From NCBI GenBank assembly GCA_963774075.1, contig CAVZDP010000003.1:408062-472061 (forward strand): a stretch of 64,000 nt of DNA, given 5' to 3'. Shown here piece after piece: positions 6,602 to 41,125 of this stretch. Made by a program: the position numbers and the translations under genes. The notes beneath the pieces are model-generated. The model saw only the letters and a list, made by a program, of their open reading frames with translations, searched no databases and was not told where the DNA came from. The DNA comes from an uncultured Solirubrobacterales bacterium. GTDB lineage: Bacteria; Actinomycetota; Thermoleophilia; Solirubrobacterales; JBBDJG01. Position 1 is the stretch's first letter; every line of letters starts with the position of its first letter.

Positions 6602-6608
6602 ACAGTAG

Positions 6609-15381: not shown

Positions 15382-16227
15382 TCAGCCCACTCCGACGCAG
15401 CCCACGACGTCCTGAGACCACCAGTCCTGCTGGTGGCCCCATCCGCCCTCCTTGTACATGACCAGCCTCAGCGCGGAGCGCCTCTCGATCTCGGCGCACG
15501 TCCACGACGGGTTCGCGATCGAGATGCCGTAGTTGACGGGCATCGAGAGCTCGCTCCGCCGCTCGTCGCTGAACCAGTCGGTGTAGCCGAAGCCGGTGCG
15601 GTCGTAGCCGTCGAGGACCTCCTCGATCTGCTCCTTCTGCATCCCCCACGCCATCTGGGCCGGATGAGCGCCGAAGCGCTCCTCGACTTCGTGCCTTCGC
15701 ATACCGAACGCTTCGAGCCGCGCTCGCACTCGGTCGGCGATCATCCGCCCGTGCGTCGTGAAGACGAGCACGCCGCCGGTGGGAGCGAGGATCGATTCGA
15801 ACAGGTCGAGGAAGGCTCTCGTGCCGTCGAGGTCGAGGTGAGTCAGGAGCGAGCCGACCCAGATCAGGTCGAAGGGACCCTCGAGCGCGACGTCGCGCGG
15901 ATGCTGTGCACTGTAGACGGGGATCGCGCCGAGCGCCGCGGCGCAGAAATCGACGCCGTCGCGATTGATGTCGCATGCGGTGACGGCCGCCCGCGGGAAC
16001 GCCGCCTTCAGAGTCCTCAACACGCGCCCATGGCCACAGGGAAGGTCGAGCACGCTCGCCGGCTCGGAGAGCCCAGCGGAAAGCATCGCCAAGCGCACGT
16101 TGCGAAGTGCGAGCTGGCCGGCCTCGAAGTAGTACTCCGGGATCGCCTTGTACATCTGGTCGTGCGGCGAAATCTCTTCGATCACCCCGGGGACTTCCCG
16201 GTAAAGGTCTTCGAGCAACCGGGTCAT
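15382..16227 (-). CDS. Class I SAM-dependent methyltransferase
   Basis: An in-frame ATG at 16227 gives MTRLLEDLYREVPGVIEE..SVLDLPCGHGRVLRTLKAAFP..DLIWVGSLLTHL..GGVLVFTTHG. The 5' part of the 480-aa track ORF overlaps the next gene in another frame and is Arg/Ser-rich nonsense. Confidence 0.8.
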   Translation of the reverse strand: MTRLLEDLYREVPGVIEEISPHDQMYKAIPEYYFEAGQLALRNVRLAMLSAGLSEPASVLDLPCGHGRVLRTLKAAFPRAAVTACDINRDGVDFCAAALGAIPVYSAQHPRDVALEGPFDLIWVGSLLTHLDLDGTRAFLDLFESILAPTGGVLVFTTHGRMIADRVRARLEAFGMRRHEVEERFGAHPAQMAWGMQKEQIEEVLDGYDRTGFGYTDWFSDERRSELSMPVNYGISIANPSWTCAEIERRSALRLVMYKEGGWGHQQDWWSQDVVGCVGVG

Positions 16228-16252
16228 GGAGCTGTCAGACGAGACGGAGATC

Positions 16253-19298: not shown

Positions 19299-19310
19299 GG
19301 CGTGGGCCTC

Positions 19311-20606
19311 TCAGCCGGTCAGCACTGGCTCTCGGCGCAGAGTGAGCAGGTCGTCATACAGCTGACTGAGGTTCGCCGTGTGCTCCTGCATGGTGTAGAC
19401 GGGCTTGATCCCGGCGTGGAGCTGCTCCCACAGGCCCGGCGTGTCCACAGCTCTCTGGATCGTGTCCGCGAGGTTCTGCGGGTTTCCGACGCGAAAGTGA
19501 AGCCCGTCCACCCCGTCGGTGACCTTCTCCGCCATTCCCCCGACGTCGCTGCAGATCACAGGCCTGCCGTGGAGGAACGCCTCCTGGATCACCAGCGGCG
19601 AGTTCTCCCACCACAGGGACGGAACCACGATCCAGTCGGCTTCGCTCATGAGCCCCGCGACCGCCGCGCGGCTGTAGGCGCCGCGGTTGGCGACCGTCGG
19701 TCCCGCCTCCTGGAGCAGGTTGTGGAACGCGCCCCTCCAGTGCTCGTGCTGCAGCTCCAGGTTGGCCGCGTGGAGCGAGAGCTGGATGTCCTGCCGGATC
19801 CCACGCAGTCGCGCCATGGCACCGAGCAGAACCTGCAGACCCTTGTAAGGGTTGGCCTGGCCGAAGAACGCGAGCCGGTTGCGCGGTCTCGGCTGCCCCT
19901 CGTCCGGCGCCGGCACGCGCGGCTCCGGCCAGCGCCCGTAGTCCTCGAACCGAATTCGCTCGCGCGGGAGTCCCCAGTCGACGTAACGCTCGAGCAGGAA
20001 ATGGCTCGGCGCGAGGAACGTGTCGACGTGCTCGAAATGCGACCGGGCGAAGCGCTCTCGCAGAAAGAACTGCTGAGGAGGGATCTCCGGAAAGCACTCG
20101 TTACAGCGCCGCGGCGACCACTGGAGGCACAGCTCGCCGCTCGATCTCTGGAGCTGCCCCTGACGATGGCAGATCGGGAGGTATTCGTGCAGCGTGTAGA
20201 CGATGGGCACCTCCGGCAGGACGCGCCGAGTGAGCGAGACCAGGTCGATCCCCATGAAGAACGTGTGCTGGAAGTGGACGACGTCGGGTTTCTCCGAGCG
20301 GAGGAACTCGGCGAATTTGTTTGTGTACTGCGACTTCTCCCGCAGGGTCATGAGGAAGAAGTCGAAGTGCGCCTCCTCCGTGAAGAAGAAGTGTTGATTT
20401 TCGTCGTCGTTTATGTTGCTGAACGGGGCGCCCGCGTGTGACGTGCGCGGCTTCGACACGTCGTTGCCCAGCCTTGCCATGAGCACGGGTTGGTACTCCT
20501 GCGATTCCCGCATCGCCTCGTAGAGCTCGAGTGCATATGACTCGGATCCGCCAGGACGGATCGACGGGTGGTTGTGGAGTATGTAGAGGACCTTCTTCTT
20601 GCTCAT
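19311..20606 (-). CDS. GT4-type (GT-B) glycosyltransferase with a Cx13Cx7Cx2C insert (paralog 1 of 6)
   Basis: An in-frame ATG at 20606 gives MSKKKVLYILHNHPSIRPGGSESYALELYEAM. It continues PDVVHFQHT..LHEYLPICHRQGQLQRSSGELCLQWSPRRCNECFPE..FFGQANPYKG..VVPSLWWENSPLVIQEAFLHGRPVICSDVGGMAEKV..GLHF (an EX7E-like GT-B C-terminal motif). Confidence 0.85.
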   Translation of the reverse strand: MSKKKVLYILHNHPSIRPGGSESYALELYEAMRESQEYQPVLMARLGNDVSKPRTSHAGAPFSNINDDENQHFFFTEEAHFDFFLMTLREKSQYTNKFAEFLRSEKPDVVHFQHTFFMGIDLVSLTRRVLPEVPIVYTLHEYLPICHRQGQLQRSSGELCLQWSPRRCNECFPEIPPQQFFLRERFARSHFEHVDTFLAPSHFLLERYVDWGLPRERIRFEDYGRWPEPRVPAPDEGQPRPRNRLAFFGQANPYKGLQVLLGAMARLRGIRQDIQLSLHAANLELQHEHWRGAFHNLLQEAGPTVANRGAYSRAAVAGLMSEADWIVVPSLWWENSPLVIQEAFLHGRPVICSDVGGMAEKVTDGVDGLHFRVGNPQNLADTIQRAVDTPGLWEQLHAGIKPVYTMQEHTANLSQLYDDLLTLRREPVLTG

Positions 20607-20831
20607 GTGAGACGCACGCCCAAGCGGGACGTTAGCCACTCCGGCAGGCGCATCGCCAAGCCCGCGTCGCGTTTCACCAGACGCTGCCGCGGCGACGCGC
20701 CGGCGCTCCTGGAGAGCTCTCCCCCCGCCTTTGTGCGGTGCGGCGGGCCCAAATCGGTCGATTAGACTATACATCGAGAAGTAAGGCGGACTGGGCGGCT
20801 CTGGCGCCGGATCGGGAGCGGTAGGTAAGGC
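20607..20831. promoter_or_regulatory. Divergent intergenic region (225 nt) between the minus-strand GT4/X-GT2 pair and the plus-strand cassette array; candidate bidirectional promoter region
   Basis: This is the largest non-coding gap in the core. It contains the only clearly A/T-rich patch (aaatcggtcgattagactatacatcgagaagtaagg, ~20751-20787). That patch has TAGACT (20763-20768, plus strand) and TATAGT (complement of 20766-20771, minus strand) as -10-like TAnnnT hexamers. No convincing -35 element. Confidence 0.35.
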
Positions 20832-21731
20832 TTGCAATCAGGAGGGGACGGGAGCGGTTCGGCTCAGCTGAGCGCAGAGGAGCGCGACCGTGTGCTGGGG
20901 CGGCTGGGGGAAGTGGTACGCACCCACGTGCCGGCGAATACGCCGGTCGCGGTGGTGAGCGATGGGGACAAGGCCTTCGTCGAGATCGAGGGAGCCAACG
21001 CCCTGCACTTTCCGTCCGCGGAAGACGGTGGGCACGCCGGCCGGCTCCCGGCGGACGGAGCGGAGGCGGTCGAGCTGGTCGAGCTCCTGCGGCGGCGCGA
21101 CGTCCAGTACCTCACCTTGCCGAGCCAGGCGTTCTGGTGGCTCGAACGCTATCCGGAGCTGAACCAGCACCTCATCAAGCGCTACCAACTCCTCGCCAGC
21201 GAGGACGCCTGCCTCCTCTATCGCCTCGTCGAGCAGCCCCGGCAGGCCACCGGGCAGGGTGGCCACCCCGCTGCCGACCCGCGCCTCCTGCAGCCCATCA
21301 GGGACCTCCTCGACCACCTCCTCCCGGCACGGACCGCGGTGGCAGTCATGACGCTCGGCGAGGCAGCTCCACTCCCCGGCGTCCAGGCGTGGCAGTTCCC
21401 GCGCGCCGCCCGGGAGGACCTGGGCCTCGCCGCCGGCCACCTGGCTGCGCTCGAGGCGGGCGGCGTGGAGTTTCTCGTAGTGGCGAGGCCTGAACGCGAA
21501 TGGCTCGAGCTTCACCCGGGGCTGCTCGATTACCTGCGCACGCACCACCGCCTGACGACGAGCCAGGAACACCTATGCGACGTGTACGAGCTCTCCGCTC
21601 CGGTCTCGAACGACCCCGTCCCGGACCGGCCGGAGGAGACCGCGCAGCAGCCGAGCCCGGCTCGGCGCACGCCCGTCACGCGCCTGCTGGATCGAGCCCT
21701 TCGCCCGGGCACCGATGGTAACGACCGTTAA
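20832..21731 (+). CDS. Standalone tandem WWLD-domain protein (tD1): two copies of the ~95-aa domain, the second degenerate
   Basis: Copy 1 is VAVVSDGDKAFVEI..HFPSAEDGGHAGRLPADGAEAVELVELLRRRDVQYLTLPSQAFWWLERYPELNQHLIKRY..CLLYRL. Copy 2 is VAVMTLGEAAPL..FPRAA..GHLAALEAGGVEFLVVARPEREWLELHPGLLDYLRTHH..LCDVYEL. The TTG start at 20832 is inferred because the paralogs conserve the region from SAEERDRV onward. Confidence 0.7.
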   Translation: MQSGGDGSGSAQLSAEERDRVLGRLGEVVRTHVPANTPVAVVSDGDKAFVEIEGANALHFPSAEDGGHAGRLPADGAEAVELVELLRRRDVQYLTLPSQAFWWLERYPELNQHLIKRYQLLASEDACLLYRLVEQPRQATGQGGHPAADPRLLQPIRDLLDHLLPARTAVAVMTLGEAAPLPGVQAWQFPRAAREDLGLAAGHLAALEAGGVEFLVVARPEREWLELHPGLLDYLRTHHRLTTSQEHLCDVYELSAPVSNDPVPDRPEETAQQPSPARRTPVTRLLDRALRPGTDGNDR

Positions 21732-23037
21732 CGCCAGGCCGAAGGTCCTCTTCGTCTGCCACAACCACCCGGCGATCCGTCCGGGGGGCGCCGAGGGCTA
21801 TGCGCTGGACCTGTACGAGGCGATCGGCCTGGCGGGAGAATTCGAGCCGTACTTCCTCGCGCGTGTAGACAACGACCAGCGAGAGGCTCTCTCGCATCAC
21901 GAAACGACGCCGATCACGGGGGTACAGGGCGATCCGAACCAGTACTTCCTGTTCACCGACCTGTCGCAGTGGGACTGGCTCTTCGGCAGGTACCCCGACA
22001 AGACGCCACTGGTCCCGTTCTACCGTGATTTCCTGCAAGCGCTCAAGCCGGACGTCGTCCATTTCCAGCACACCGTGTTCATCGGCTACGACATTCTGCG
22101 CGTGACACGAAACGCGTTGCCGGACTCGCCGATCGTGTACATGCTGCACGAGTACATGCCAATTTGTCTGCGCGGGGGGCAGCTGGTGAGGGTGCATGGG
22201 GACGACCTGTGTCAAAAGGCCTCGCCGCGACGCTGCCACGAATGCTTTCCCAACCTCAGCATGCCCGAGCTCTTCATGCGCGAGCGTTTCGTCAAGTCGC
22301 AGCTGGCGCTAGTGGATTTGTTCCTGACGCCGAGCGCGTACGCCAGAGAGCGCTACATCGACTGGGGCCTGTCAGCCGACTCGATCCGAGCCGTCGAGCA
22401 CGGACTGCGGCCCGTTCAGAGGCTGCCGGAGACCAATGAGGAACGGCCCCGCAACCGCTTTGCGTTCTTCGGCCAGTTCACTCCCACCAAGGGCGCCGAC
22501 GTCTTCCTCGAGGCGGTGAAGCGGCTGGGCGACGACTTCGACGGCCACGTCTGGTTCCACGGCGCGAATCTCGAGGTGCAGCCGCCCGACTTCAGGGAGC
22601 GGATCGAACGGCTGCTGGAGGCGACGGGCGGAAAGGTCAGCATGAGAGGCTCCTATGACCATTCGGGCCTCGCGAAGCTGATGAACCAGATCGACTGGGT
22701 CGTCGTGCCGTCGATCTGGTGGGAGACCGGGCCGCTGGTCGTTCCGGAGGCGTTCCTGTACGGAAGGCCGGTCATCTGCAGCGATATCGGGGGGATGTCC
22801 GAGCGGGTGACCTCCGGGGTCAACGGGCTGCACTTCCGCCGGGCCGATCCGGACAGCCTGGCAGAGGCGATGCTGAAGGCTTCCCGCACTCCCGGGCTGT
22901 GGGAAGAGCTGAGGGCGGGGATCCCGCCGGTGCAGACCATGGAACAGCACGCCGAGCTGGTCGGCGGCATGTACCGTGAGCTTCTCGCCGGACGGCGCGC
23001 AACCGTCGCTCCCGCCGTGCCGAGCACCTCCGCATAG
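21715..23037 (+). CDS. GT4-type glycosyltransferase with Cx13Cx7Cx2C insert (paralog 2 of 6)
   Basis: It reads KVLFVCHNHPAIRPGGAEGYALDLYEAI..PDVVHFQHT..LHEYMPICLRGGQLVRVHGDDLCQKASPRRCHECFPN..FFGQFTPTKG..VVPSIWWETGPLVVPEAFLYGRPVICSDIGGMSERV. The start overlaps the upstream stop by 17 nt. Confidence 0.9.
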   Translation: MVTTVNARPKVLFVCHNHPAIRPGGAEGYALDLYEAIGLAGEFEPYFLARVDNDQREALSHHETTPITGVQGDPNQYFLFTDLSQWDWLFGRYPDKTPLVPFYRDFLQALKPDVVHFQHTVFIGYDILRVTRNALPDSPIVYMLHEYMPICLRGGQLVRVHGDDLCQKASPRRCHECFPNLSMPELFMRERFVKSQLALVDLFLTPSAYARERYIDWGLSADSIRAVEHGLRPVQRLPETNEERPRNRFAFFGQFTPTKGADVFLEAVKRLGDDFDGHVWFHGANLEVQPPDFRERIERLLEATGGKVSMRGSYDHSGLAKLMNQIDWVVVPSIWWETGPLVVPEAFLYGRPVICSDIGGMSERVTSGVNGLHFRRADPDSLAEAMLKASRTPGLWEELRAGIPPVQTMEQHAELVGGMYRELLAGRRATVAPAVPSTSA

Positions 23038-23068
23038 CCGATGCCCAACCCGCTCGAGGAATAGGTCG

Positions 23069-24385
23069 ATGTCCAAGCCCAAAGTTCTCTACGTCGCCCA
23101 GAACCATCCCGAGGTGCGCCCAGGCGGAGCCGAGGGCTATGCGCTCGACCTCTATCACGCGATGCGCCGCATCGGCGAATTCGAGCCGATCTTCTGCGCG
23201 CGTACCGGGCCCCCGATCTCGAAGGTGAAGCGAACCCTCACCGGTGCCCCCTTCACGGCCGCGAACGAGGATCCGAATCAGTACTTCTTCTGGACCGACC
23301 TCACGCACTACGACTGGTTCTACGGGCGTCCGCCCGACAAGTCGATACTGACGAGGTTCTTCCGCGACTTTCTGCTCACGCACCGGCCGGACGTGATCCA
23401 CTTCCAGCACACACTGTTCATCGGCTACGAGGCCGTTCGGATCGCGAGGCGAACGTTGCCGGACACCCCAATCGTGTACATGCTGCACGAGTACCTGCCG
23501 ATCTGTCATCGCGACGGGCAGATGGTCCGCACGCTCGAGAACGACCTCTGCCAGCTCGAGACCCCGCATCGCTGCCACGAGTGCTTTCCGGAAACCAGCC
23601 CGCAGACCTTCTTCGCGCGCAAGCGCTTCATCCAGTCTCAGCTTCGTCACGTCGACGTGTTCATCGCTCCGAGCGAGTACGTGCGCGAGCGCTATGCCGC
23701 CTGGGGAATTCCCGCGGAGAAGATCAGGGTCGAGCCCTACGCCTGCTTCCCCGTCGCAAAACTGGAGACGGACGACCACCAGGGGCCACGAAACAGATTC
23801 GCCTTCTTCGGTCAGTTCACCCCGTACAAGGGCGCTGACGTTCTGCTTCAGGCGATGGCGCAGCTCGGTGACGACTTCGGCGGCCATCTCTGGATCTACG
23901 GCGCCAACCTCGAGACCCAGCGCCCGGAGTTTCGCGAGATGTTCGAGTCCATGCTCGAGGCCACCGGGCGCACGGTGACGTTCGCGGGCCACTACGACCA
24001 CGCCGACTTGCCGAAGCTGATGGAGCGGATCGACTGGGTGGTCGTGCCGTCGATCTGGTGGGAGACGGGGCCCATCGTGGTGCTCGAGGCGTTCCAGTAC
24101 GGGCGCCCCGTCATCTGCAGCGACATCGGCGGGATGTCGGAGAAGGTCACCCACGAGGTCAGCGGACTGCATTTTCGCCGCGGGGATCCGGCCAGCCTTG
24201 CCGAGGCGATGCGTCGGGCCGTGGAGACGCCTGGCATCTGGGACACCCTGCGTACCGGGATCCCCCAGGTTCCGATGATCATGGAGCACGCGCGGGTGCT
24301 GTCGGATCTCTATCGAGATCTGCTTGCCGCGCGCCGGACGCGCCAGAAGGCGGGCCTCGAGACGGTTGGAGCCACCGATGACTGA
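23069..24385 (+). CDS. GT4-type glycosyltransferase with Cx13Cx7Cx2C insert (paralog 3 of 6)
   Basis: An in-frame ATG at 23069 (MSKPKVLYVAQNHPEVRPGGAEGYALDLYHAM) is preceded by GAGGAA. It continues LHEYLPICHRDGQMVRTLENDLCQLETPHRCHECFPE..VVPSIWWETGPIVVLEAFQYGRPVICSDIGGMSEKV. Confidence 0.9.
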   Translation: MSKPKVLYVAQNHPEVRPGGAEGYALDLYHAMRRIGEFEPIFCARTGPPISKVKRTLTGAPFTAANEDPNQYFFWTDLTHYDWFYGRPPDKSILTRFFRDFLLTHRPDVIHFQHTLFIGYEAVRIARRTLPDTPIVYMLHEYLPICHRDGQMVRTLENDLCQLETPHRCHECFPETSPQTFFARKRFIQSQLRHVDVFIAPSEYVRERYAAWGIPAEKIRVEPYACFPVAKLETDDHQGPRNRFAFFGQFTPYKGADVLLQAMAQLGDDFGGHLWIYGANLETQRPEFREMFESMLEATGRTVTFAGHYDHADLPKLMERIDWVVVPSIWWETGPIVVLEAFQYGRPVICSDIGGMSEKVTHEVSGLHFRRGDPASLAEAMRRAVETPGIWDTLRTGIPQVPMIMEHARVLSDLYRDLLAARRTRQKAGLETVGATDD

Positions 24386-26240
24386 CGCGGCGACCTCCTC
24401 CCGCGAGCGCCGGCGCGGGAGGCAACGGCAACAGCGCGCCGGCGGCGTGGCGGCGCTCGGCCCCCGGGTGCTGGTGGCGGTCGGAGAGCTCGCGTCCACG
24501 CGGGGCTCCGAAGTGGAGCTCGCTCAAGGGCGAGAGCGGCTCGAGGCCGAATGTCACATGCTCACGTTCGAGCGCCCCGACCCGGACGGCAGCCCCGAGC
24601 CGGCTCAGCTCCTGTGTGCCGTGATCACCTCCGAAGACTGGGACGTCAACTCCCAAGGGCCGGTGACGCTTACGGCGAACGGGAGCAGCTTCGAGCTCGA
24701 CCCCCGCGCTCAGCTGCAGGCAGCCCTCGGAGCGCTGGTCCGCCGTGACCTCGCCCCTCTCGACGGGCGAACCCGCAACCGGATCAGCGACTTCATGGCA
24801 CGCGCGTGCGCGTCGGCGCTCGCTGGAGCCGGCGGGCTCCGCGTCAGCGAGCGGCTGTTCTCGCTGCGCCAGGCGCTGCGCGAGCGGCTTCCCGTGCACG
24901 CAAACCAGCCCGAGCATCCGATGGGGCTGTATGCCGATCGCCTGCTCGCGATCGATGAGCGCTCTTATTACCTGCGCGGCTGGATGCGAGACGAGGCATC
25001 GAGGGCGGTGCGGCTGACCGCGGTGTCCCCGGAGGGTGCCCGCATGGACCTGCTCGACAGGCTCTACCGCTTCCCACGTCCCGATGTACTCGACTTCTAC
25101 TCCGGGCTCGGCCGGGCGACGGACACGAGACTCGGCATGCTGTCCTTCTTCGACCTCGGCGTCCCGAGCATGGAACCGGCGGGGTGGATATTGGAGATGG
25201 AGGAGGGGGATGGCGCGGCAATCGAGGTCGCCATTCCCCCCGTTGTCCGCGACCCCGAGGTGGTGCGCAACACGATTCTCGAGGACGCCCTGCGCGAGCG
25301 GCAGCTGGACCGGCGGCTGATGGTCGACAACGTCAAGCCGGCGCTGACGCTGATGCAAGAGCGGCTCGAGCAAACGGTGCGCGTGCGTGCCGTCAATCAG
25401 TACGGAGTCGGGCCCGAATCGCCTGACGTGTCCATCATCGTGCCGCTGTACCAGCACATCGAACACGTCGAGATGCAGATGGCCGAGTTCGGCGACGACC
25501 CGCAGTTGCGAGACGCCGACCTGATCTACGTGTTGGACTCGCCCGAGCAGGCCGACGCGCTCGACTTCACGGCGGGCCAGCTCGAGCAGATCTACGGGAT
25601 CCCCTTTCGAACCGTGGTGCTGGAGCACAACGTCGGCTTCGCCGGAGCGAACAACGCCGGCTTCGGCCTCGCCCGCGGGCGGCTTCTGCTATTGCTCAAC
25701 TCGGACGTCTTGCCGGCACGGCCGGGATGGCTGCGGGCGATGGCGGAGTTCTACGACCAGACGCCAGGCATCGGGGCGCTCGGTCCGAAGCTCCTATACG
25801 AGGACGATTCGATCCAGCACGCGGGCATGTGCTTCCATCAGCCTCCGGGCAGCCCCGACTGGCTCGACGCCCACTTCTTCAAGGGCATGCATCGCACGTT
25901 GCCCGAGGCGAACGTCGCCCGCCCGGTGCCCGCCGTGTCGGGGGCCTGTCTCATGATCGCGGCGGACCTCTACCGGCGCCTTCCGTTGCGTGGCATCTAC
26001 GTCCGGGGAGACTACGAGGACTTCGATCTCTGTATGCGGCTGACCGAGGCGGGTCTGGAGAACTGGTACGTCCCAAGCGCCGAGCTCTACCACCTCGAAG
26101 CACAGTCATACACCAGCCAGCTGCGCGGGCCCACCAACCGCTACAACATGTGGCTCCACACGCATCTGTGGAGCGACACGATCGAGCAGCTCATGAGCTC
26201 CGATCGCTACCGGCCCACCGGCGACCTCAGGCCGACATGA
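24378..26240 (+). CDS. X-GT2 glycosyltransferase (paralog 2 of 4)
   Basis: The ATG at 24378 overlaps the upstream stop by 8 nt (ATGACTGA). The N-domain is LLAIDERSYYLRGWMRDEASRAVRLTAVSPEG..LYRFPRPDV..GWILEME. The GT2 part is VSIIVPLYQHIEHVEMQMAEF..LIYVLDSPE..NVGFAGANNAG..LLNSDVLPARPGW..LLYEDDSIQHAGM..GDYEDFDLCMRL. Confidence 0.85.
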   Translation: MTDAATSSRERRRGRQRQQRAGGVAALGPRVLVAVGELASTRGSEVELAQGRERLEAECHMLTFERPDPDGSPEPAQLLCAVITSEDWDVNSQGPVTLTANGSSFELDPRAQLQAALGALVRRDLAPLDGRTRNRISDFMARACASALAGAGGLRVSERLFSLRQALRERLPVHANQPEHPMGLYADRLLAIDERSYYLRGWMRDEASRAVRLTAVSPEGARMDLLDRLYRFPRPDVLDFYSGLGRATDTRLGMLSFFDLGVPSMEPAGWILEMEEGDGAAIEVAIPPVVRDPEVVRNTILEDALRERQLDRRLMVDNVKPALTLMQERLEQTVRVRAVNQYGVGPESPDVSIIVPLYQHIEHVEMQMAEFGDDPQLRDADLIYVLDSPEQADALDFTAGQLEQIYGIPFRTVVLEHNVGFAGANNAGFGLARGRLLLLLNSDVLPARPGWLRAMAEFYDQTPGIGALGPKLLYEDDSIQHAGMCFHQPPGSPDWLDAHFFKGMHRTLPEANVARPVPAVSGACLMIAADLYRRLPLRGIYVRGDYEDFDLCMRLTEAGLENWYVPSAELYHLEAQSYTSQLRGPTNRYNMWLHTHLWSDTIEQLMSSDRYRPTGDLRPT

Positions 26241-26334
26241 TCGAGCTGGATGTGGCTCCCAGAGCGGTTTTCGGCCACAATGCCACTGTTATACTGACCG
26301 TGAGGTTTTCGGAGCGGAAGGAGTAGAGGCAGAG

Positions 26335-27234
26335 TTGGGTCTTGGCACTGAGGGCCGGACGGATGCGGCCCCTGTTCGTGCTGGGGAATACGAGCAGCTC
26401 GCCGAGCAGATCCGCGAGCTCGCGCATCTACGGATTCCGACGGGAGCGACCGTGGCGGTCGTGAGCCGGGGAGACGAGGTGCTGCTGCAGCTCGGGCGCC
26501 GTAAAGGCGTGCACTTCCCCCAGGACGAGGACGGCAAGTGGGCCGGCTTTCACCCCTCCGACAGCGAGTCGGCCGTAGAGATGCTCGAGCAGGCGCGCGA
26601 GGAGGGCGCCGAATACTTCCTGCTGCCGAGCACCTCCTTCTGGTGGCTCGACTACTACCAGGGCCTCAAGACCCACCTCGAGACCCGCTACCAGGTGGTC
26701 GAGGCGGGCGATTCGTGCTGGATCGTCCAGCTCACGCCAGGAATGGATCTTGCCGCCCATTCAGTCCCCGCGCCCAGTGCCGATACAGAACGCATGACGG
26801 TTGGCCTGAGCCTGCACGAATCGTCTCCGTCGCTGCGCGAGGTCATCGACGGTCTCCTGCCCGAAGGCGCGAAAGTCGGCCTCTTGAGCACCGGCGGCGC
26901 CGGAACTCCCGCAGGGCTGCTCCAAGCGGACCTCGCCGACCCGGAAGCCGCCATCGATCAGCTCCACAACCTGGAGACGGACGGCACCCAGTTCGTCGTC
27001 GTCCCGGGGATGCTCTTCGATTGGCTGGCCGACAACCCCGAGGTACGGCAGCAGCTCAACCGCCATCGCTTCATCACGAAGCAGGCTCATCTCTGCGAGA
27101 TCTACGAGCTTCTTCCGGCCACGGAGGAGCGGCCGCCGCGTGAAAGCGAGGAAACGGGGACGACCAGGACCTCTTTCGGCGAGGTACTACGGCGCATCCT
27201 TCTTCGTTCTCGGCGGCATGGCACCGGTTCCTAG
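26335..27234 (+). CDS. Standalone tandem WWLD-domain protein (tD2)
   Basis: Copy 1 is VAVVSRGDEVLLQLGRRKGVHFPQDEDGKWAGFHPSDSESAVEMLEQAREEGAEYFLLPSTSFWWLDYYQGLKTHLETRY..SCWIVQL. Copy 2 is KVGLLSTGGAG..DPEAAIDQLHNLETDGTQFVVVPGMLFDWLADNPEVRQQLNRH..LCEIYEL. The TTG start at 26335 is preceded by GGAAGGAG..GAGGCAGAG. Confidence 0.75.
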   Translation: MGLGTEGRTDAAPVRAGEYEQLAEQIRELAHLRIPTGATVAVVSRGDEVLLQLGRRKGVHFPQDEDGKWAGFHPSDSESAVEMLEQAREEGAEYFLLPSTSFWWLDYYQGLKTHLETRYQVVEAGDSCWIVQLTPGMDLAAHSVPAPSADTERMTVGLSLHESSPSLREVIDGLLPEGAKVGLLSTGGAGTPAGLLQADLADPEAAIDQLHNLETDGTQFVVVPGMLFDWLADNPEVRQQLNRHRFITKQAHLCEIYELLPATEERPPRESEETGTTRTSFGEVLRRILLRSRRHGTGS

Positions 27235-28537
27235 AGACAAGGTCCTCTACGTCTGCCACAACCACCCGGCGATCACGCCTGGTGGTGCAGAGAGCATTGC
27301 GCTCCAGCTCTACGAGGGCATGCGCGATGCCGGCGAGCTCGATGCGGTCTTCCTCGCCCGCAGCGGTCCTCCCGTCTCCATCACGGCCCGCGTGCACGAA
27401 GGCCGCCCGCTGACGCTCGTCAACGACGACCCGAATCAGTACTTCTTCTACACCGACCTCTCCGATTGGGATTGGCCGTTCGGGCGCTCTCCGAACAAGT
27501 CGGCGCTAACGCGCTTCTTTGCCGACTTCCTCCTGGATCAGGATCCTGACGTCGTCCACTTCCAGCACTCGACGTTCCTCGGATACGACGCGCTGCGGGT
27601 GACGCGTAACACTCTGCCGGACGTGCCGATCGTTTACACGCTGCACGAGTTCCTGCCCATCTGCTTCCACGACGGCAAGCTAGTCAGGACGCGCAACTAC
27701 GAGCCCTGCCTCGAGGCCTCGCCACGTCGCTGCCACGAGTGCTTTCCGGCCATCAGCCAGCAGACCTTCTTCATGCGCGAGCGGTTCATCAAGTCGCATC
27801 TCTCGGTCGTTGACCAATTCATCTCGCCGAGCCGTTTTCTGCGCGACCGCTACGTGGACTGGGGCCTGCCGGCGGAGAAGATCATGGTCGAGGAGAACGG
27901 CCGCCTCGCGGTCGAGAAGCTGCCGCCGACCGAGGGGCGCCGAAACCGGTTCGCCTTCTTCGGGCAGCTCACCCAGTACAAGGGCATCGACGTGCTGCTG
28001 AAGGCGATGGCGCTTCTCGACGAGGCGGAGTTCGAAGCACAGGTCTTCATCCACGGCGCGAACCTGGACTGGGCCCCCGAGGACTTCAAGGACGAGCTCC
28101 TAGCCCTGCTCGACGCCGCCGGGCCGTCGGTGAGCCTGGTTGGAATCTATGAGCCGCACGAGCTGCGCAATCTCATGCAGGAGGTGGATTGGGTCCTGGT
28201 GCCCTCGATCTGGTGGGAGAACTCGCCGCTCGTGATTCAGGAAGCCTTCATGTATGGGCGGCCGGTCATCTGCAGCGACATCGGCGGAATGGCGGAGAAG
28301 GTGACCGACGGCGTCGATGGGCTCCACTTCCGGCGGGCCGACCCGGAGAGCCTCGCCGAGGTGATGCAGAGGGCGGTGACCACGGAAGGGCTCTGGGAAA
28401 GGCTGCGCGCAAACGCCCCGCAGGTCCAAACGATGCGCGATCACGTCGCGACGCTCACCGGGACGTACCGCAGGCTGCTTGCCGACCGCGAGGGGCAGGT
28501 CTCCGAGTCCGACGGCGAGGTGGTGCAGCTTGCATAA
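27218..28537 (+). CDS. GT4-type glycosyltransferase with Cx13Cx7Cx2C insert (paralog 4 of 6)
   Basis: An in-frame ATG at 27218 (MAPVPRDKVLYVCHNHPAITPGGAESIALQLYEGM) overlaps the upstream stop by 17 nt, as at 21715. It continues LHEFLPICFHDGKLVRTRNYEPCLEASPRRCHECFPA..LVPSIWWENSPLVIQEAFMYGRPVICSDIGGMAEKV. Confidence 0.9.
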   Translation: MAPVPRDKVLYVCHNHPAITPGGAESIALQLYEGMRDAGELDAVFLARSGPPVSITARVHEGRPLTLVNDDPNQYFFYTDLSDWDWPFGRSPNKSALTRFFADFLLDQDPDVVHFQHSTFLGYDALRVTRNTLPDVPIVYTLHEFLPICFHDGKLVRTRNYEPCLEASPRRCHECFPAISQQTFFMRERFIKSHLSVVDQFISPSRFLRDRYVDWGLPAEKIMVEENGRLAVEKLPPTEGRRNRFAFFGQLTQYKGIDVLLKAMALLDEAEFEAQVFIHGANLDWAPEDFKDELLALLDAAGPSVSLVGIYEPHELRNLMQEVDWVLVPSIWWENSPLVIQEAFMYGRPVICSDIGGMAEKVTDGVDGLHFRRADPESLAEVMQRAVTTEGLWERLRANAPQVQTMRDHVATLTGTYRRLLADREGQVSESDGEVVQLA

Positions 28538-28538
28538 C

Positions 28539-29894
28539 ATGGTCACCGACCAGGTTGAGTCGAGCAACGGGGGCAGGCGGCGTCCCAAGGTCATGTTCGT
28601 CGCTCACAACCATCCGCAGATCCGGCCCGGCGGGTCGGAGGGCTACGCGTTCGAGGTCTACGAGGAGATGCGTGACCAGGGCGAGTTCGAGCCGGTCTTC
28701 GTGGTCCGCAGCGGGCCACCGATCTCCATCGCCGACCGGCAGCACGAAGGCCGTCCATTCACGCTTGCCAACAACGACCCCAACCAGTATCTCTTCTACA
28801 CCGACCCGACCGGCTTCGACTGGCTCTACGGCCGCTCACCGCACAAGTCGGCCCTAACCAGGTTCTTCAGCGACTTTCTCCTCGACCAGCAGCCGGACCT
28901 GGTCCACTTCCATCACACGATGTTCCTCGGCTACGACATCCTCCGCGTCACGCGCAACACCCTTCCCGACGTTCCGATCGTCTACACGATCCACGATCAC
29001 ACGCTGATCTGCAACCGCGACGGCCAGATGGTGAGGACGGGCACGGACCAGCTCTGCAACGAGGCGTCGCCACGTCGCTGCCACGAGTGCTTCCCGGGCA
29101 TCAGCCAGCAGACCTTCTTCATGCGCGAGCGCTTCATCAAGTCTCAGCTGTCGGCGGTGGACCTCTTCATAATTCCGAGCAAGGACGCGTTCGAGCGCTA
29201 CGTCGATTGGGGGATCCCTAGATCGCGCATCGTCCACGAGCCACACGGCCGCCCGCCGAGGGAGATGATCGATGACGCCGACGCCGATCTCCCGCGTGAC
29301 CGGTTCGGCTTCTTCGGCCAGCTGACGGCGTACAAGGGAGCCAACGTGCTGCTCGAGGCGATGTCCCTGCTGGGCGAGGATTTCAAGGGCACGTTGACGA
29401 TTCACGGGGCGAACCTCGAGATCGCTGAGCAGGAGTTCCAGGAGCAGCTCACCGCGCTGCTGGAGGACTCCCACGCCAACGTTCGCCTGGCCGGCGAGTA
29501 CACCTACAGTGACCTGCCGAACCTGATGGAGCGGATCGACTGGGTGGTAGTCCCGTCGATCACCTACGAAACGGGCCCTCTCACGCTTCTCGAGGCGTTC
29601 GAGCACGGCCGACCGGTCATCTGCAGCGACATCGGCGGAATGGCCGAGAAGGTGACCGACGGCGTCGATGGGCTCCACTTTCGGCGCGGCAACGCCCACA
29701 GCCTCGCTTCGACGTTGCGGCGCGCCGCGAGCGACCCGGAGCTCTGGAAAGAGCTCCGCGCCGGAATACCGCCAGTACAGACGATGAGCGACCACATCCA
29801 TCGACTCGCAGGTCACTACCGGTCTCTGCTCGAGCGGCCGCAGCAGATGTCTCGGTCGGCCTCGGGCGGCGGAAAGGTGCATCAGCGTGCCTAG
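28539..29894 (+). CDS. GT4-type glycosyltransferase with Cx13Cx7Cx2C insert (paralog 5 of 6)
   Basis: The ATG at 28539 lies 1 nt after the upstream TAA. It reads MVTDQVESSNGGRRRPKVMFVAHNHPQIRPGGSEGYAFEVYEEM..IHDHTLICNRDGQMVRTGTDQLCNEASPRRCHECFPG..VVPSITYETGPLTLLEAFEHGRPVICSDIGGMAEKV. Confidence 0.9.
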   Translation: MVTDQVESSNGGRRRPKVMFVAHNHPQIRPGGSEGYAFEVYEEMRDQGEFEPVFVVRSGPPISIADRQHEGRPFTLANNDPNQYLFYTDPTGFDWLYGRSPHKSALTRFFSDFLLDQQPDLVHFHHTMFLGYDILRVTRNTLPDVPIVYTIHDHTLICNRDGQMVRTGTDQLCNEASPRRCHECFPGISQQTFFMRERFIKSQLSAVDLFIIPSKDAFERYVDWGIPRSRIVHEPHGRPPREMIDDADADLPRDRFGFFGQLTAYKGANVLLEAMSLLGEDFKGTLTIHGANLEIAEQEFQEQLTALLEDSHANVRLAGEYTYSDLPNLMERIDWVVVPSITYETGPLTLLEAFEHGRPVICSDIGGMAEKVTDGVDGLHFRRGNAHSLASTLRRAASDPELWKELRAGIPPVQTMSDHIHRLAGHYRSLLERPQQMSRSASGGGKVHQRA

Positions 29895-31743
29895 CCGACT
29901 CGCCGCACTCGAAGCTGACGGCACCTCGGTCGGCCTCGCCAGCCGCCTGTCCACCGGCGTGCTGCTGCTGGCGGGCCGCTTCGGCGAGGGCGAGGAGCGC
30001 CGCGTGATGCTCCACAGGGACGATGCGGAGACACCGCTCGAGTCGGTCAGCTTCGACTATGAGCTGTCCGAGTACCCCGGGGAGCCCGGGAGGCCGCGGA
30101 CGCTGATGATGGTCTTCCTGCCAACGCGCTACCCGCTGCGGCGAGACGACAGGCTCACGATCGAGGCTCCCGGTTCCCGCGTGGAGCTCGAGTGGCAGGA
30201 GCTCAAGCGCTCGCTCACAGACCTCAAGACGCTCGCGCGCACCGCGCTGGCGCCCCTGGATGCGGAGGGTCGTGCCAGCGCGATGAAGTTCCTGGCCCGC
30301 GCGCTCGCGATCCACCCCCGTGGCGGCGCGATCCAGCTCAGCGAGACGCTGTTCGAGCTGCGAACCGCCCTCCGCGAGCACCTGCCCGTGTACGACCACG
30401 CACCCGACCAGCCGCGTGGGATTGCCATGGAGTCGATCATGGCGGTGGACGACTGCTCCTTTTACATGGAGGGTTGGGCCCGCGACGAGGAGGCGGAGAT
30501 CGTGCGGCTCACGGCCGTCTCCCCCGAGGGGGACCGGGCCGAGCTGGCCGGGAACCTCTATCGCTTCCCGCGGGCCGACGTGACCAACTACTTCGCGGTC
30601 GGGGTCATCAGCCGTCAAGACCCCAACGAGCAAGTCGGCTTCATTTCTTTCTTCGAGCTCGAGTCTCCGAGCTTCCTGAGCACCGGCTGGGTGCTCGAGA
30701 TGGAGAATGCGCAGGGAACCGTGCTCGAGACGGGAGGACCGCCCGTCGTGCGCGATTCGAAAATCGCCCGTGAGCGCATTCTGGCCGCCGCGAGCAGGGA
30801 GCGGCTTCCCGACGACGAGCTGATGGAGAAGCACGCCATGCCGGCCCTGGTCAGGTTCCAGCAGCACGTCGAGGACTCGATCAGGATCGCGTCCGTGACC
30901 GAGTTCGGGGAGCCCCCTTCGGCGCCAGCCGTCTCCATCGTGATTCCGCTCTACAAACGCGTGGACTTGATCGAGCAGCAACTTGCCGAATTCGTGCTCG
31001 ACCCAGAGATCCGAGACGCCGAACTGATCTACGTCCTGGACTCGCCCGAGCAGAAGGACGAGCTTCTCTTCCTCGCCTCTCGCCTATTTCCGGTCTACCG
31101 AATTCCCATGCGCGTGGCGGTACTCCAGCGCAACGTCGGCTTCGCGGGCGCGAACAACGCAGGCGCCTCGATTGCGCGTGGAAGTCTCTTGATGCTCATG
31201 AACTCCGACGTCTTGCCGGACAAGCCCGGGTGGCTCGGTGTGTTGAGCCGCTTCTACGAGGAAACGCCCAACATTGGCGCGCTCGCCCCGAAGCTGCTGT
31301 ACGAGGACGGCTCGATCCAGAACGCGGGCATGCGCTTTCACCGGCCGCACGGAACATCGGTCTGGCTGGACGACCACTACTTCCGGGGCCTGCACCGCAG
31401 CTTTCCAGCCGCCAACGTGCCCCGCAGAGTGCCCCTGCTCTCGGGCGCCTGCCTGATGATCTCTCGCTCGCTTTACGAGGAGCTCGGAGGCCTGCGCGGC
31501 ATCTACGTACAGGGCGATTACGAGGACAGCGACCTCTGCATGCGCCTCAACGAGCTCGGCCGCGACAACTGGTACATGCCGGACGCGGAGGTCTTCCACC
31601 TCGAGGGCACGTCCTACACGGCCGACATGCGCATGCCCGCCAACAGGTACAACGGCTGGCTGCACACCCACCTCTGGAAAGACCACATCGGCGCCCTGAT
31701 GGCGCGGTACGAAAGCCCGAACGGAGCGGCGGACTCGCCGTAG
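29887..31743 (+). CDS. X-GT2 glycosyltransferase (paralog 3 of 4)
   Basis: The GTG at 29887 overlaps the upstream stop by 8 nt (GTGCCTAG). The N-domain is IMAVDDCSFYMEGWARDEEAEIVRLTAVSPEG..LYRFPRADV..GWVLEME. The GT2 part is VSIVIPLYKRVDLIEQQLAEF..LIYVLDSPE..NVGFAGANNAG..LMNSDVLPDKPGW..LLYEDGSIQNAGM..GDYEDSDLCMRL. Confidence 0.85.
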   Translation: MPSRLAALEADGTSVGLASRLSTGVLLLAGRFGEGEERRVMLHRDDAETPLESVSFDYELSEYPGEPGRPRTLMMVFLPTRYPLRRDDRLTIEAPGSRVELEWQELKRSLTDLKTLARTALAPLDAEGRASAMKFLARALAIHPRGGAIQLSETLFELRTALREHLPVYDHAPDQPRGIAMESIMAVDDCSFYMEGWARDEEAEIVRLTAVSPEGDRAELAGNLYRFPRADVTNYFAVGVISRQDPNEQVGFISFFELESPSFLSTGWVLEMENAQGTVLETGGPPVVRDSKIARERILAAASRERLPDDELMEKHAMPALVRFQQHVEDSIRIASVTEFGEPPSAPAVSIVIPLYKRVDLIEQQLAEFVLDPEIRDAELIYVLDSPEQKDELLFLASRLFPVYRIPMRVAVLQRNVGFAGANNAGASIARGSLLMLMNSDVLPDKPGWLGVLSRFYEETPNIGALAPKLLYEDGSIQNAGMRFHRPHGTSVWLDDHYFRGLHRSFPAANVPRRVPLLSGACLMISRSLYEELGGLRGIYVQGDYEDSDLCMRLNELGRDNWYMPDAEVFHLEGTSYTADMRMPANRYNGWLHTHLWKDHIGALMARYESPNGAADSP

Positions 31744-31830
31744 GGCCGGCGCGGGTTACGCGGCCGCAGCCGCGCGTGCAGAGCGGGAAACGGCACGGTC
31801 CCCCAACTAGACTTGAGAGGTGGAGAGGAA

Positions 31831-32781
31831 GTGAACGCGGGTGCATCGAGAGGCCCAACCAGCGTGACCGCGGAGCCTGCCAAGGGGCCCTATCCGCGCG
31901 TCACGAGCTCCGAGTACGCCCACACCGTCCAGCGACTTCAGGAGATCGTCAGCACCAGCGTGCCGGCTGACGCGGTCGTGCTGATCGCAAGCAGGGGCGA
32001 CGAGGCGCTCTTGGAGCTGGACAGGCGCGAGGGGTGGCACTTCCCGCAGGCCTCGAACGGCGAGTACGCCGGCCACTATCCAGAGGATGGGGCGAGCGCA
32101 ATCTCCCATCTCGAGGAGCTGCGAGGCCGTGGCGCGCAATACGTCGCGTTTCCCGAAACGGCCATGTGGTGGCTCGACCACTACGGCGAGCTACGCGAGC
32201 ATCTCGAAGACCGCTGCCGCCTCGTCGCCGACGAGCCGGAGTGCAGGGTCTTCGAGCTTGCGGCCGTCGCGCCCGAGGGGGTGCTCGCCGAAACGGAATC
32301 GTCGCCCGTCGAGCCCATGCCCGGTGCCGCCACGTCGCGCCTGCACGCGGAGGACTTCAAAGCGTTGCGCGAAGTTGTGCGAGGCCTGCTTCCGCCCAAC
32401 GCGAGCGCCGCCGTCGTGGGTTCGGACCCCGCGACGCTGAGCGCGCTCGAGCTCGATGGTTACCGCGTTTGGGCGATCGAGCCCGACGCCGGCGCGCCGG
32501 CCGCGGAGCTCGCGGAAGCTGAGCGCCTTGGTTGTCGCTTTCTGGTCGTCACCAGAGCGGGCTTCGACTCTCTGGACGAGATGACGGAGCTGAGCGACCA
32601 CGTCCGGCGCCGGTATTCGTTCGTGACCCGGCAGGAGGAGCTGTGCGAGATCTACGAGCGCCGCGAAAGCTCCCAGGGCTCTCAGGGAGCGGCTCATGCG
32701 GCGACGGACGGCCCCGGCGGGCAGTCCCTGCTCGCGCGCCTGCGCTCGATGCTCCCCGGCCGCCGCGGCGGGAAAGCGTAG
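31831..32781 (+). CDS. Standalone tandem WWLD-domain protein (tD3)
   Basis: Copy 1 is VVLIASRGDEALLELDRREGWHFPQASNGEYAGHYPEDGASAISHLEELRGRGAQYVAFPETAMWWLDHYGELREHLEDRC..CRVFEL. Copy 2 is AAVVGSDPATL..AAELAEAERLGCRFLVVTRAGFDSLDEMTELSDHVRRRY..LCEIYE. I prefer GTG 31831 (GGTGGAGAGGAA immediately upstream) over the track's TTG 31813. Confidence 0.75.
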   Translation: MNAGASRGPTSVTAEPAKGPYPRVTSSEYAHTVQRLQEIVSTSVPADAVVLIASRGDEALLELDRREGWHFPQASNGEYAGHYPEDGASAISHLEELRGRGAQYVAFPETAMWWLDHYGELREHLEDRCRLVADEPECRVFELAAVAPEGVLAETESSPVEPMPGAATSRLHAEDFKALREVVRGLLPPNASAAVVGSDPATLSALELDGYRVWAIEPDAGAPAAELAEAERLGCRFLVVTRAGFDSLDEMTELSDHVRRRYSFVTRQEELCEIYERRESSQGSQGAAHAATDGPGGQSLLARLRSMLPGRRGGKA

Positions 32782-32786
32782 TCGGC

Positions 32787-34106
32787 ATGAAGGTCCTGTT
32801 CGTCTGCCACAACCACGCGAAGCTGCGCCCCGGCGGAGCGGAAGGCTACGCGCTCGACCTCTACGAGCATCTTCGCGCACGCGACGACTTCACCCCGATC
32901 TTGCTCGCGCGCGCCGAGCCGCCGCGCTCGGATCGCTCCCGCCGGTTCGAGGGCAGGCGGATCAGGCGGGTCGACGACGACCCCAACCAGTACCTCTTCT
33001 ACACGGACCCCAAGGAGCACGACTACCTATTTGGCAAGGGCCGCAACAAGAGCGAGTTGACGCGGTTCTACCGTGAGTTCCTGCTGGCCCAGGAGCCGGA
33101 CGTGGTCCACTTCCAGGGCACGCTGTTCCTCGGCTACGACATCATCCGGGTGACGCGCAACGCTCTGCCTCACGCGGGGATCGTCTACACGCTGCACGAG
33201 TACCTCCCGATCTGCTACCGCGACGGCCAGATGGTCCGCACGAAGGGGAACGAGCTCTGCGGCGAGGAGTCTCCACGCCGCTGCCACGAGTGCTTCCCCG
33301 AGGTGAGCGAGCAGGACTTCTTCCTGCGCAAGGCCTTCATCCAGTCCCATCTCGAGCTGGTCGACCGGTTCATCGCTCCAACGCCCCACACGCTGGAGCA
33401 GTACGTGCAGTGGGGCATCCCGCGCGAGAAGATTCGTCTCGAGTCGCAAGGGATAGTGCGCCCACTGCCCGAGCGGCCGAGGCGGCGGCCGGCCACTCGG
33501 GACCGCAGGCGAAACTGCTTCGGCTACTTCGGCCAGCTCACTCCCTACAAGGGCGTCGACGTGCTGCTGAGGGCGATCGACGCGCTCGGAGACGAGTTCG
33601 ACGGGAAGCTGTGGATCCACGGCGCGAACCTGGAGCATGCAAAGCCCGAGTTTCGGGCCGAGCTGCGCGCGCTGCTCGAGCGCACGAAGGACCGGGTCAC
33701 GTTCGCCGGTCGCTACGAGAGGCACGAGCTGCCCGAGCTGATGGAGCGGATCGACTGGGTTGTGATCCCGTCGATCTGGTGGGAGACCGGCCCGCTCACG
33801 GTGTCGGAGGCCTTCATGCACGGCCGTCCGGTGATCTGCTCGAACATGGGCGGAATGGCGGAGCGCGTCGAGGACGGGGTCAGCGGTCTGCACTTCCGCC
33901 GTGGCGATCCCCACGACCTCGCGGACGTGCTGCGGCGAGCGTCGACCGCGCCGGAGCTCTGGGACGAGCTGCGCGCCGGCATACCCGAGGTTCATTGGAT
34001 GAAGGACCACGCGGCCGTGCTTGGCGAGCTGTACAGGGAGCTCGCCGCCTCGCGCTCCCCCGCCAGCTCGCCGCTCGAGACGCGCGAGGCACTCAGGAGT
34101 GCCTGA
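32787..34106 (+). CDS. GT4-type glycosyltransferase with Cx13Cx7Cx2C insert (paralog 6 of 6)
   Basis: An in-frame ATG at 32787 gives MKVLFVCHNHAKLRPGGAEGYALDLYEHL. It continues LHEYLPICYRDGQMVRTKGNELCGEESPRRCHECFPE..VIPSIWWETGPLTVSEAFMHGRPVICSNMGGMAERV. Confidence 0.9.
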   Translation: MKVLFVCHNHAKLRPGGAEGYALDLYEHLRARDDFTPILLARAEPPRSDRSRRFEGRRIRRVDDDPNQYLFYTDPKEHDYLFGKGRNKSELTRFYREFLLAQEPDVVHFQGTLFLGYDIIRVTRNALPHAGIVYTLHEYLPICYRDGQMVRTKGNELCGEESPRRCHECFPEVSEQDFFLRKAFIQSHLELVDRFIAPTPHTLEQYVQWGIPREKIRLESQGIVRPLPERPRRRPATRDRRRNCFGYFGQLTPYKGVDVLLRAIDALGDEFDGKLWIHGANLEHAKPEFRAELRALLERTKDRVTFAGRYERHELPELMERIDWVVIPSIWWETGPLTVSEAFMHGRPVICSNMGGMAERVEDGVSGLHFRRGDPHDLADVLRRASTAPELWDELRAGIPEVHWMKDHAAVLGELYRELAASRSPASSPLETREALRSA

Positions 34107-40480: not shown

Positions 40481-40559
40481 TCCGCGCGAGCGAGGCCCTT
40501 GCGGCGAAGGTGCGCAGGGCACGATCCGATGGACCCGACTCCGGGAGAGTGTCGAGCTG

Positions 40560-41114: not shown

Positions 41115-41125
41115 GGCTTGCCGCC

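Follow-up and report, generated by a model that had tools for sequence, protein, structure and literature searches.

The window analysed here, a 64,000-nucleotide stretch from an uncultured Solirubrobacterales bacterium (contig CAVZDP010000003.1, positions 408,062 to 472,061; G+C content 68%), contains six genes for glycosyltransferases of family 4 (GT4), referred to here as G1–G6, each with four cysteines gathered in one short segment of the N-terminal domain. We consider it rather probable that these cysteines make up a structural metal site of the tetrathiolate type (most likely Zn(Cys)4), stapling a rigid knuckle beside the acceptor subsite of a retaining GT4 enzyme, which would alternate with a family 2 (GT2) partner to build an α/β-linked polymer. 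Among glycosyltransferase families GT4 ranks with the largest and, as far as the searched literature and the PDB show, no metal site has been described or solved in a GT4 N-domain. The kind of enzyme and a homologous pathway are known; the four-cysteine (Cys4) feature is widespread and has no annotation in Pfam or NCBIfam, no structure in the PDB and no report in the literature searched.

The six genes were identified from their open reading frames (ORFs) and Pfam matches, and G3 also from an AlphaFold2 model and Foldseek; segment coordinates run from the first to the fourth Cys.

G1: 19311..20606, minus strand, GT4; ORF 19311–20837 (508 amino acids), probable start Met at 20606; four-Cys segment 20094..20171, CHRQGQLQRSSGELCLQWSPRRCNEC, Cys 223/237/245/248 of the 508-residue ORF
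G2: 21715..23037, plus strand, GT4; four-Cys segment 22165..22245, C-x14-C-x7-C-x2-C
G3: 23069..24385, plus strand, GT4 of 438 amino acids; ORF 22976–24385, true start at 23069; four-Cys segment 23504..23584, Cys146/161/169/172
G4: 27140..28537 (ORF), plus strand, GT4, probable start near 27218; four-Cys segment 27662..27742, C-x14-C-x7-C-x2-C
G5: 28479..29894 (ORF), plus strand, GT4, probable start near 28539; four-Cys segment 29010..29090, C-x14-C-x7-C-x2-C
G6: 32532..34106 (ORF), plus strand, GT4, probable start at 32787; four-Cys segment 33213..33293, C-x14-C-x7-C-x2-C

All six proteins match both Pfam domains of the family above the gathering cut-offs, Glyco_transf_4 in the N-domain (42–57 bits against 28.5) and Glycos_transf_1 in the C-domain (65–94 bits against 26.4), which bears out a preliminary description of this DNA that had called them GT4 paralogs. 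The EX7E motif of the C-domain is present in each (WWETGPIVVLE in G3, YETGPLTLLE in G5), and its residues E332 and E340 are invariant in an alignment of 65 sequences. The motif holds 24 of the 36 Cys of the six proteins, a pattern far beyond chance. Its spacing is C-x14-C-x7-C-x2-C in G2–G6 and C-x13-C-x7-C-x2-C in G1 only. The preliminary description had placed four Cys in one short segment of every copy, quoted the six peptides correctly and given approximate nucleotide ranges that enclose all the exact coordinates, but had miscounted the first gap as 13 residues throughout. It had also put the segment after the PDVVHFQHT block; this is right as to order, but some 30 residues intervene before the segment, which directly follows the next strand, PIVYTLH(E/D).

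It is reasonable to regard the four-Cys segment as an insert in the GT4 N-domain. The G N-domain spends 204 residues on the 161 positions of the Glyco_transf_4 profile and so contains inserts, and the stretch that follows the shared LHD/LHE motif in HepE (PDB 4xso) is devoid of Cys in a weak alignment. The earlier suggestion that the segment lies outside the canonical N-domain holds in that neither the standard profiles nor the solved structures cover it; that it is inserted follows indirectly, from the profile lengths and the HepE alignment.

Searching with G3, whose product is 100% identical to database protein P0001, returned 2533 homolog clusters, and the motif occurs in all 120 of those listed (56–81% identity), with a first gap of x14 in 117, x15 in one and x16 in two. 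The four Cys are likewise invariant in 65 of 65 aligned homologs. A search with the N-domain only, against 1.84 billion representatives clustered at 50%, gave 1537 matches (E ≤ 1e-3); among the best 150 of these, the lowest at 33% identity, all four Cys are present in 133, that is, in every one of the 133 intact sequences down to 33% identity. The 17 that seem to be motif-less are fragments or gene calls frameshifted within the motif, and not true exceptions. Across 106 near-full-length representatives (≥33% identity), the sole N-domain positions conserved at 100% are the four Cys and Gly150, and the four Cys are under extreme purifying selection. About ten of the 150 gene calls change frame inside or just before the motif, so that SPRRCHECFP is read as RRAAATSAFP (P0124, P0141, P0153, P0160, P0162, P0196, P0232, P0247, P0249 and P0255); such frame shifts, which mimic motif loss, probably stem from errors of sequencing or assembly in metagenomes of high G+C content.

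Relatives extend well beyond the host group of the window. A scan of species genomes, one per species, found at least 582 relatives in about ten phyla, with Solirubrobacterales the majority and other Actinomycetota, Acidobacteriota, Verrucomicrobiota, Planctomycetota, Chloroflexota, Dormiibacterota and Alphaproteobacteria (including Thalassospira, Microvirga and Magnetospirillum) among the other hosts. Conservation across such distant relatives rules out chance as the origin of the pattern. It bears equally on the idea that the motif is a mere product of recent duplication in the cluster and carries no functional meaning: the six G genes are indeed paralogs in a repeated cassette, but they share pairwise identity of just 48–60%, and the motif is invariant at 27–40% identity in Actinomycetota, Acidobacteriota, Planctomycetota, Verrucomicrobiota, Chloroflexota and Alphaproteobacteria. 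This invariance in distant relatives from many phyla refutes recent duplication, which we find scarcely credible as an explanation.

At the limits of the clade the number of Cys is kept and their spacing drifts. Two GT4 paralogs from a Thermoanaerobaculia locus, 27% and 35% identical, retain C-x13-C-x7-C-x2-C, and a search from the 27%-identical paralog opened a second GT4 family, mainly in Planctomycetota, with the pattern LHDYWxxCPRGQR...C...DRxRCxxC. Four Cys are present in 117 of the 120 members listed, the remaining three being fragments; the gaps are x12 or x13, then x7 and x2, in 103 of the 120, and most of the other first-match spacings are shifted by an extra upstream Cys. Over all relatives the first gap takes values between x12 and x16, and in one case the motif ends in C-x1-C. 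A constant count with drifting spacing is expected of metal ligands and not of a sequence-specific signal. A still more distant GT4 (24% identity; L053 19127–20338) has C-x12-C-x3-C-x6-C at the same position, HDHYTICPTIHLIDNNGRYCSGQCTPGHGTC.

Judged by sequence, the motif, which thousands of related enzymes carry, marks a very large multi-phylum GT4 clade that includes ExpE4 and ExpE7 of the Sinorhizobium meliloti galactoglucan (exopolysaccharide II, EPS II) locus, and not the narrow subfamily first envisaged. The preliminary description had counted against itself the case of a motif both common and already annotated in GT4 families: it is common, and Pfam and NCBIfam have no entry that covers it. 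No member of the three Cys4 clades scores above the curated NCBIfam cut-offs, and the matches found there are limited to the C-domain. Sequence and profile searches of the PDB likewise gave matches that cover the C-domain only and none for the Cys-bearing N-domain, and PDB searches with two motif peptides (47–54 residues) found no matching chain.

The AlphaFold2 model of G3, built on the 65-sequence alignment, has a mean predicted local distance difference test score (pLDDT) of 90.6 and a predicted template modelling (TM) score of 0.90. It shows the GT-B fold of two Rossmann-like domains, and its top Foldseek matches are all GT4 (probability 1.00). Successive ten-residue blocks of the segment have pLDDT values of 89, 77, 78 and 89. 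Secondary-structure assignment with DSSP places strand β5 at residues 135–138, followed by coil with Cys146; residues 153 and 160 are bridged in a small hairpin, with Cys161 directly after it, and Cys169 and Cys172 lie on helix 166–172. In the model, this arrangement of a loop, a two-residue-bridged hairpin and a CxxC helix suits a Cys4 metal knuckle.

Covariation across 290 unique segments (effective number of sequences, Meff, 148) recovers the 153–160 pair. The top covarying pair, confounded by clade, joins hairpin residue 154 with residue 168 beside Cys3 (window positions ~23528–23530 and ~23570–23572). Arg occupies both positions in most sequences, most of the actinobacterial ones among them; the alphaproteobacterial pair is Lys with Asp or Glu. 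This weak covariation, clade-confounded as it is, is consistent with the segment folding back on itself, and an Arg pair at 154/168 near the cleft could bind an anionic acceptor group, again with the reservation that the residues correlate with clade.

The relation of the knuckle to the active site rests on the histidine at the end of β5. H140 of the LH(E/D) motif is conserved in 96% of the 106 representatives and aligns, weakly, with the LHD of HepE. In PimB' a 'highly conserved His118' of the N-domain touches the donor mannose O6 in the closed state, and the H118S change lowers activity essentially to baseline (PMC2988379). From strand order and topology we infer that H140 is the counterpart of His118; if so, the knuckle begins six residues past an active-site residue, on the acceptor side of the cleft.

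In the mechanism that we propose, the metal would tie together a mini-domain of about 30–40 residues inserted straight after β5 of the N-terminal Rossmann domain. Cys1 would be supplied by the loop six residues past the LH(E/D) histidine, Cys2 by the end of the small β-hairpin, and Cys3 and Cys4 by the CxxC in the first turn of the short helix. Because β5 ends at the interdomain cleft, and because its His contacts the donor in other GT4 enzymes, the metal-stapled knuckle would act as a rigid wall flanking the active site on its acceptor side. The Cys4 GT4 would act together with an ExpE2-like GT2, either its neighbour or fused to it, and the product would probably be a polysaccharide with alternating α and β linkages. 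Spatial proximity of the four Cys, their binding of a metal, the identity of that metal as zinc and an influence of the knuckle on acceptor or partner binding are all inferred.

With the metal itself a prediction, two disulfides are a conceivable arrangement for four Cys, as is conservation for another reason such as catalysis or covalent modification. G1–G6 have no signal peptide, starting straight at strand β1, and are by sequence cytoplasmic, nucleotide-sugar-dependent GT4 enzymes; a metal site is likelier than disulfides in cytoplasmic proteins of this kind. None of the four Cys falls within the catalytic motifs, which are EX7E and the LH(E/D) His. Pertinent too is a natural case of Cys loss. 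A survey of 130 GT4 ORFs from 76 related loci (L001–L076) and the window found exactly four Cys in the segment of 116 and five in two; the rest are fragments or frameshifts, save four closely related paralogs from Thalassospira.

Thalassospira loci L068, L070, L075 and L076, ~5600–6900 (for example, L070 5659–6924): ExpE4-like low-Cys paralogs

In these paralogs Cys2, Cys3 and Cys4 are replaced together, by Tyr, Arg and Gly, while the 41-residue insert, the LHD motif and EX7E are retained and the T partner (the ExpE2-like GT2 described below) is still adjacent. The sequences point to a single evolutionary event, and the joint loss of three Cys shows that the Cys function jointly and that the site is dispensable. 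Such joint loss fits a cooperative site and not independent roles for each Cys, and we regard a segment without metal as very unlikely. Having so few Cys, the Thalassospira paralogs are also a naturally occurring control for the metal site proposed here.

Which metal is bound is a separate matter, as sequence alone cannot separate zinc from iron. The literature searched on zinc or Cys4 sites in GT4 or GT-B enzymes yielded the iron finger of TibC and otherwise unrelated systems. TibC, a GT-B heptosyltransferase of the BAHT type, has four conserved Cys in an inserted module that hold one tetrahedral metal, Fe(III), in the pattern C-x2-C-x15-C-x11-C, and mutation of any of them abolishes assembly and activity (PMC4358343). 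Its finger serves dimerisation, dodecamer assembly and protein-substrate binding, and its iron has no redox role (PMC4358343). By analogy, TibC is a precedent for a Cys4 metal finger in another GT-B enzyme. A rubredoxin-like Fe(Cys)4 centre or an iron–sulfur cluster in the G proteins, which may couple polysaccharide synthesis to redox or iron status, would agree with the metal of this only documented GT-B Cys4 site found, and residue 170 within the CxxC, a His in 57 of the 106 representatives, is a possible alternative ligand. The pattern, however, has one CxxC only and fits no standard iron–sulfur signature; no redox partner gene is present among the scanned ORFs of the window and of one Thalassospira locus, or in the annotation of the S. 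meliloti locus record; and even the TibC iron is without a redox role. We therefore think iron unlikely.

Returning to the zinc knuckle, several considerations weigh against it. The pLDDT of residues 151–170 (77–78) is below that of the rest of the G3 model. With a single CxxC and the first two ligands 14 residues apart, the motif is no textbook zinc-ribbon or rubredoxin pattern. The insert persists in Thalassospira with one or two Cys, so the site would not be indispensable for the fold in every lineage. TibC, finally, binds iron and not zinc, and by that analogy the metal may be other than zinc.

Gene order links the G proteins with two further families, T and U. T proteins are ExpE2-like GT2 enzymes, and U proteins are tandems of an unannotated α/β domain of about 120 residues; this U-type domain also occurs at the C terminus of two GT2 enzymes and one methyltransferase of the cluster.

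T1: 17397..19298, minus strand, ExpE2-like GT2 with an N-terminal extension of ~350 residues, downstream of G1
T2: 24324..26240, plus strand, ExpE2-like GT2, downstream of G2–G3
T3: 29887..31743, plus strand, ExpE2-like GT2, downstream of G4–G5
T4: 34021..35964, plus strand, ExpE2-like GT2, downstream of G6
U1: 20832..21731, plus strand, unannotated protein of ~280–300 residues, opens a U-G-G-T cassette
U2: 26335..27234, plus strand, paralog of U1 (31–32% identity)
U3: 31813..32781, plus strand, paralog of U1 (34% identity)
U-type domain elsewhere: 4103–6601 (residues 732–851)
U-type domain elsewhere: 6609–8141 (residues 383–507)
U-type domain elsewhere: 16253–17416, minus strand (residues 294–398)

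The layout is thus G1-T1 on the minus strand and U1-G2-G3-T2, U2-G4-G5-T3 and U3-G6-T4 on the plus strand, an amplified module (17397–35964) of six G, four T and three U genes. The duplications are old, since the paralogs are just 31–60% identical. The closest related locus, L001 from a Solirubrobacterales metagenome-assembled genome, keeps the gene order at 75–87% protein identity. G is directly followed by T in about 60 of the 76 related loci, in many phyla; U lies upstream of G in most of them, a single U-G-T per genome is typical, and alphaproteobacterial loci are arranged T-G-T-G, lacking U. In naturally fused proteins the Cys4 GT4 is linked with a GT2 (P0146, P0242, P0354 and P0388) or with a methyltransferase (P0128). 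The U protein has no sequence match in Pfam, NCBIfam or the PDB, no homolog in alphaproteobacterial exp loci and, in its AlphaFold2 model (pLDDT 67.7), no credible Foldseek match (TM-score 0.26 or less); the N-terminal extension of T has no PDB sequence match.

The adjacency of G and T across many phyla and the fusion of both activities in single polypeptides, together with the part that the TibC finger plays in dimerisation and substrate contact, would suit a knuckle that, with or without metal, mainly docks T or U into an alternating co-polymerase and shapes the acceptor site only secondarily. Nothing, however, puts the knuckle at an interface, and the Thalassospira paralogs adjoin T even though three Cys are gone. 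We hold docking as the main role to be doubtful; it is compatible with a metal site and does not exclude one. A bolder and similarly doubtful proposal is that of metal-dependent coupling, in which the Cys4 knuckle docks the GT4 on the ExpE2-like GT2 or grips the chain, giving a processive alternating co-polymerase switched by metal occupancy or thiol oxidation.

Genes flanking the module (1479–3995, 4103–8141, 15382–17416, 36011–37336, 40499–42475 and 43643–44413) encode an ATP-binding cassette (ABC) exporter with fused transmembrane and nucleotide-binding domains, more GT2 enzymes, three methyltransferases and two sulfotransferase-domain proteins. The presence of methyltransferases, sulfotransferases and an ABC exporter suggests that the cluster product is a methylated and sulfated polysaccharide exported by the ABC transporter. 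An ORF of 1469 residues at 9000–13409 combines a β-propeller resembling glucose/sorbosone dehydrogenases with several PKD domains following it; this protein is probably secreted or on the cell surface.

If confirmed, a Cys4 knuckle by the acceptor cleft would give a name and a defining feature to a large clade, uncharacterised and spread over many phyla, to which ExpE4 and ExpE7 belong. Annotation would gain an easily recognised marker motif, and experiments a target for mutagenesis and a metal with which to phase a first structure; the knuckle might also help to set acceptor or partner specificity where alternating-linkage polysaccharides are made. Were it merely a structural staple, the result would be a useful but modest annotation; were it a coupling element, it would represent a new regulatory or assembly principle for polysaccharide synthases linked to ABC or type I secretion systems.

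Comparison with solved GT4 structures, namely BshA (6n1x), MshA (3c4q), HepE (4xsu), sucrose-phosphate synthase (6kih) and Pyrococcus GlgA (3l01), shows that G3 has in common with them the two-Rossmann GT-B fold (Foldseek E values of 1e-17 to 1e-15, TM-scores of 0.58–0.76) and the C-domain with EX7E, and with HepE also LH(D/E) after β5. Identity is 20% or less, and these proteins are 40–80 residues shorter than G3. The TibC finger lies in the C-lobe, about 20 Å from the cleft, whereas the window insert is in the GT4 N-domain, and the families differ; the finger is an analogue of the window segment and not a homologue. The G proteins accordingly do not belong with the TibC-type iron fingers of BAHT enzymes, the insert being in the N-domain of a GT4 and not in a heptosyltransferase C-lobe, nor with classical zinc ribbons or rubredoxins, given one CxxC and first two Cys 12–16 residues apart. 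The type II secretion ATPase EpsE, a nucleotide-binding enzyme, is reported to contain a tetracysteine zinc module that is needed for function (PMC5061722); EpsE is unrelated to the G proteins in fold and family, and the likeness is a functional analogy only.

The closest known system is the expE locus. A plasmid protein search matched 70 Sinorhizobium megaplasmids, including pSymB of S. meliloti 1021.

pSymB, NC_003078.1, 974860–976854: matching DNA
S. meliloti locus L078, CP090105.1, 575209–611203: exp locus
S. meliloti, L078 19478–21694: ExpE6-like protein
Thalassospira, L070 7801–9996: ExpE6-like protein

The S. meliloti locus begins with a MarR regulator, a type I secretion ABC protein, HlyD and a calcium-binding protein and continues with a 749-residue glycosyltransferase, a methyltransferase, a GT4, a hypothetical protein, a 738-residue hypothetical protein, a second GT4 and a further hypothetical protein. 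By order and description these correspond to expG, expD1, expD2 and expE1–expE8 (compare PMC1403797), the ExpE numbers being assigned from gene order. ExpE7 and ExpE4 match G1–G6 at 35–40% identity over their full length (395–441 residues; E values of 1e-72 to 1e-110), and both carry C-x14-C-x7-C-x2-C at the same position as the window proteins. We take these two to be the proteins otherwise named WgeG and WgeD, respectively. ExpE2 is 34–37% identical to T1–T4 (T1, 35% over 493 residues) and ExpE6 23–27% identical to the window T proteins; ExpE4 and ExpE7 adjoin an ExpE2- or ExpE6-type GT2, and G–T adjacency is likewise seen in the window. The ExpE6-position protein of alphaproteobacterial loci is just 22–27% identical to T and ExpE2; its Thalassospira copy (L070 7801–9996) has no Pfam GT2 match, its S. 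meliloti copy is annotated merely as a hypothetical protein, and it may be a degenerate or non-catalytic partner.

In published work, ExpE4 and ExpE7 are given as galactosyltransferases, ExpE2 is given as a β-glucosyltransferase, and the repeat unit of EPS II is a disaccharide, acetylated glucose plus pyruvylated galactose, with α-1,3 and β-1,3 bonds (PMC1403797); a 2026 preprint gives the same exp gene roles. The galactosyltransferase activity of ExpE4 and ExpE7 is a sequence-based prediction. The Cys motif goes unmentioned in the ExpE literature searched, which did not include the original 1997 exp cluster paper. In place of the two G and two T genes of the S. meliloti locus, the window has six of G, four of T and three of U. 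Its scanned ORFs include neither HlyD nor an ExpE1-like calcium-binding protein, and the window has sulfotransferases and the U protein, which the alphaproteobacterial loci lack. In gene content and sequence the window looks like an expanded actinobacterial counterpart of the EPS II pathway, for which S. meliloti expE4 and expE7 offer the entry point in a model organism.

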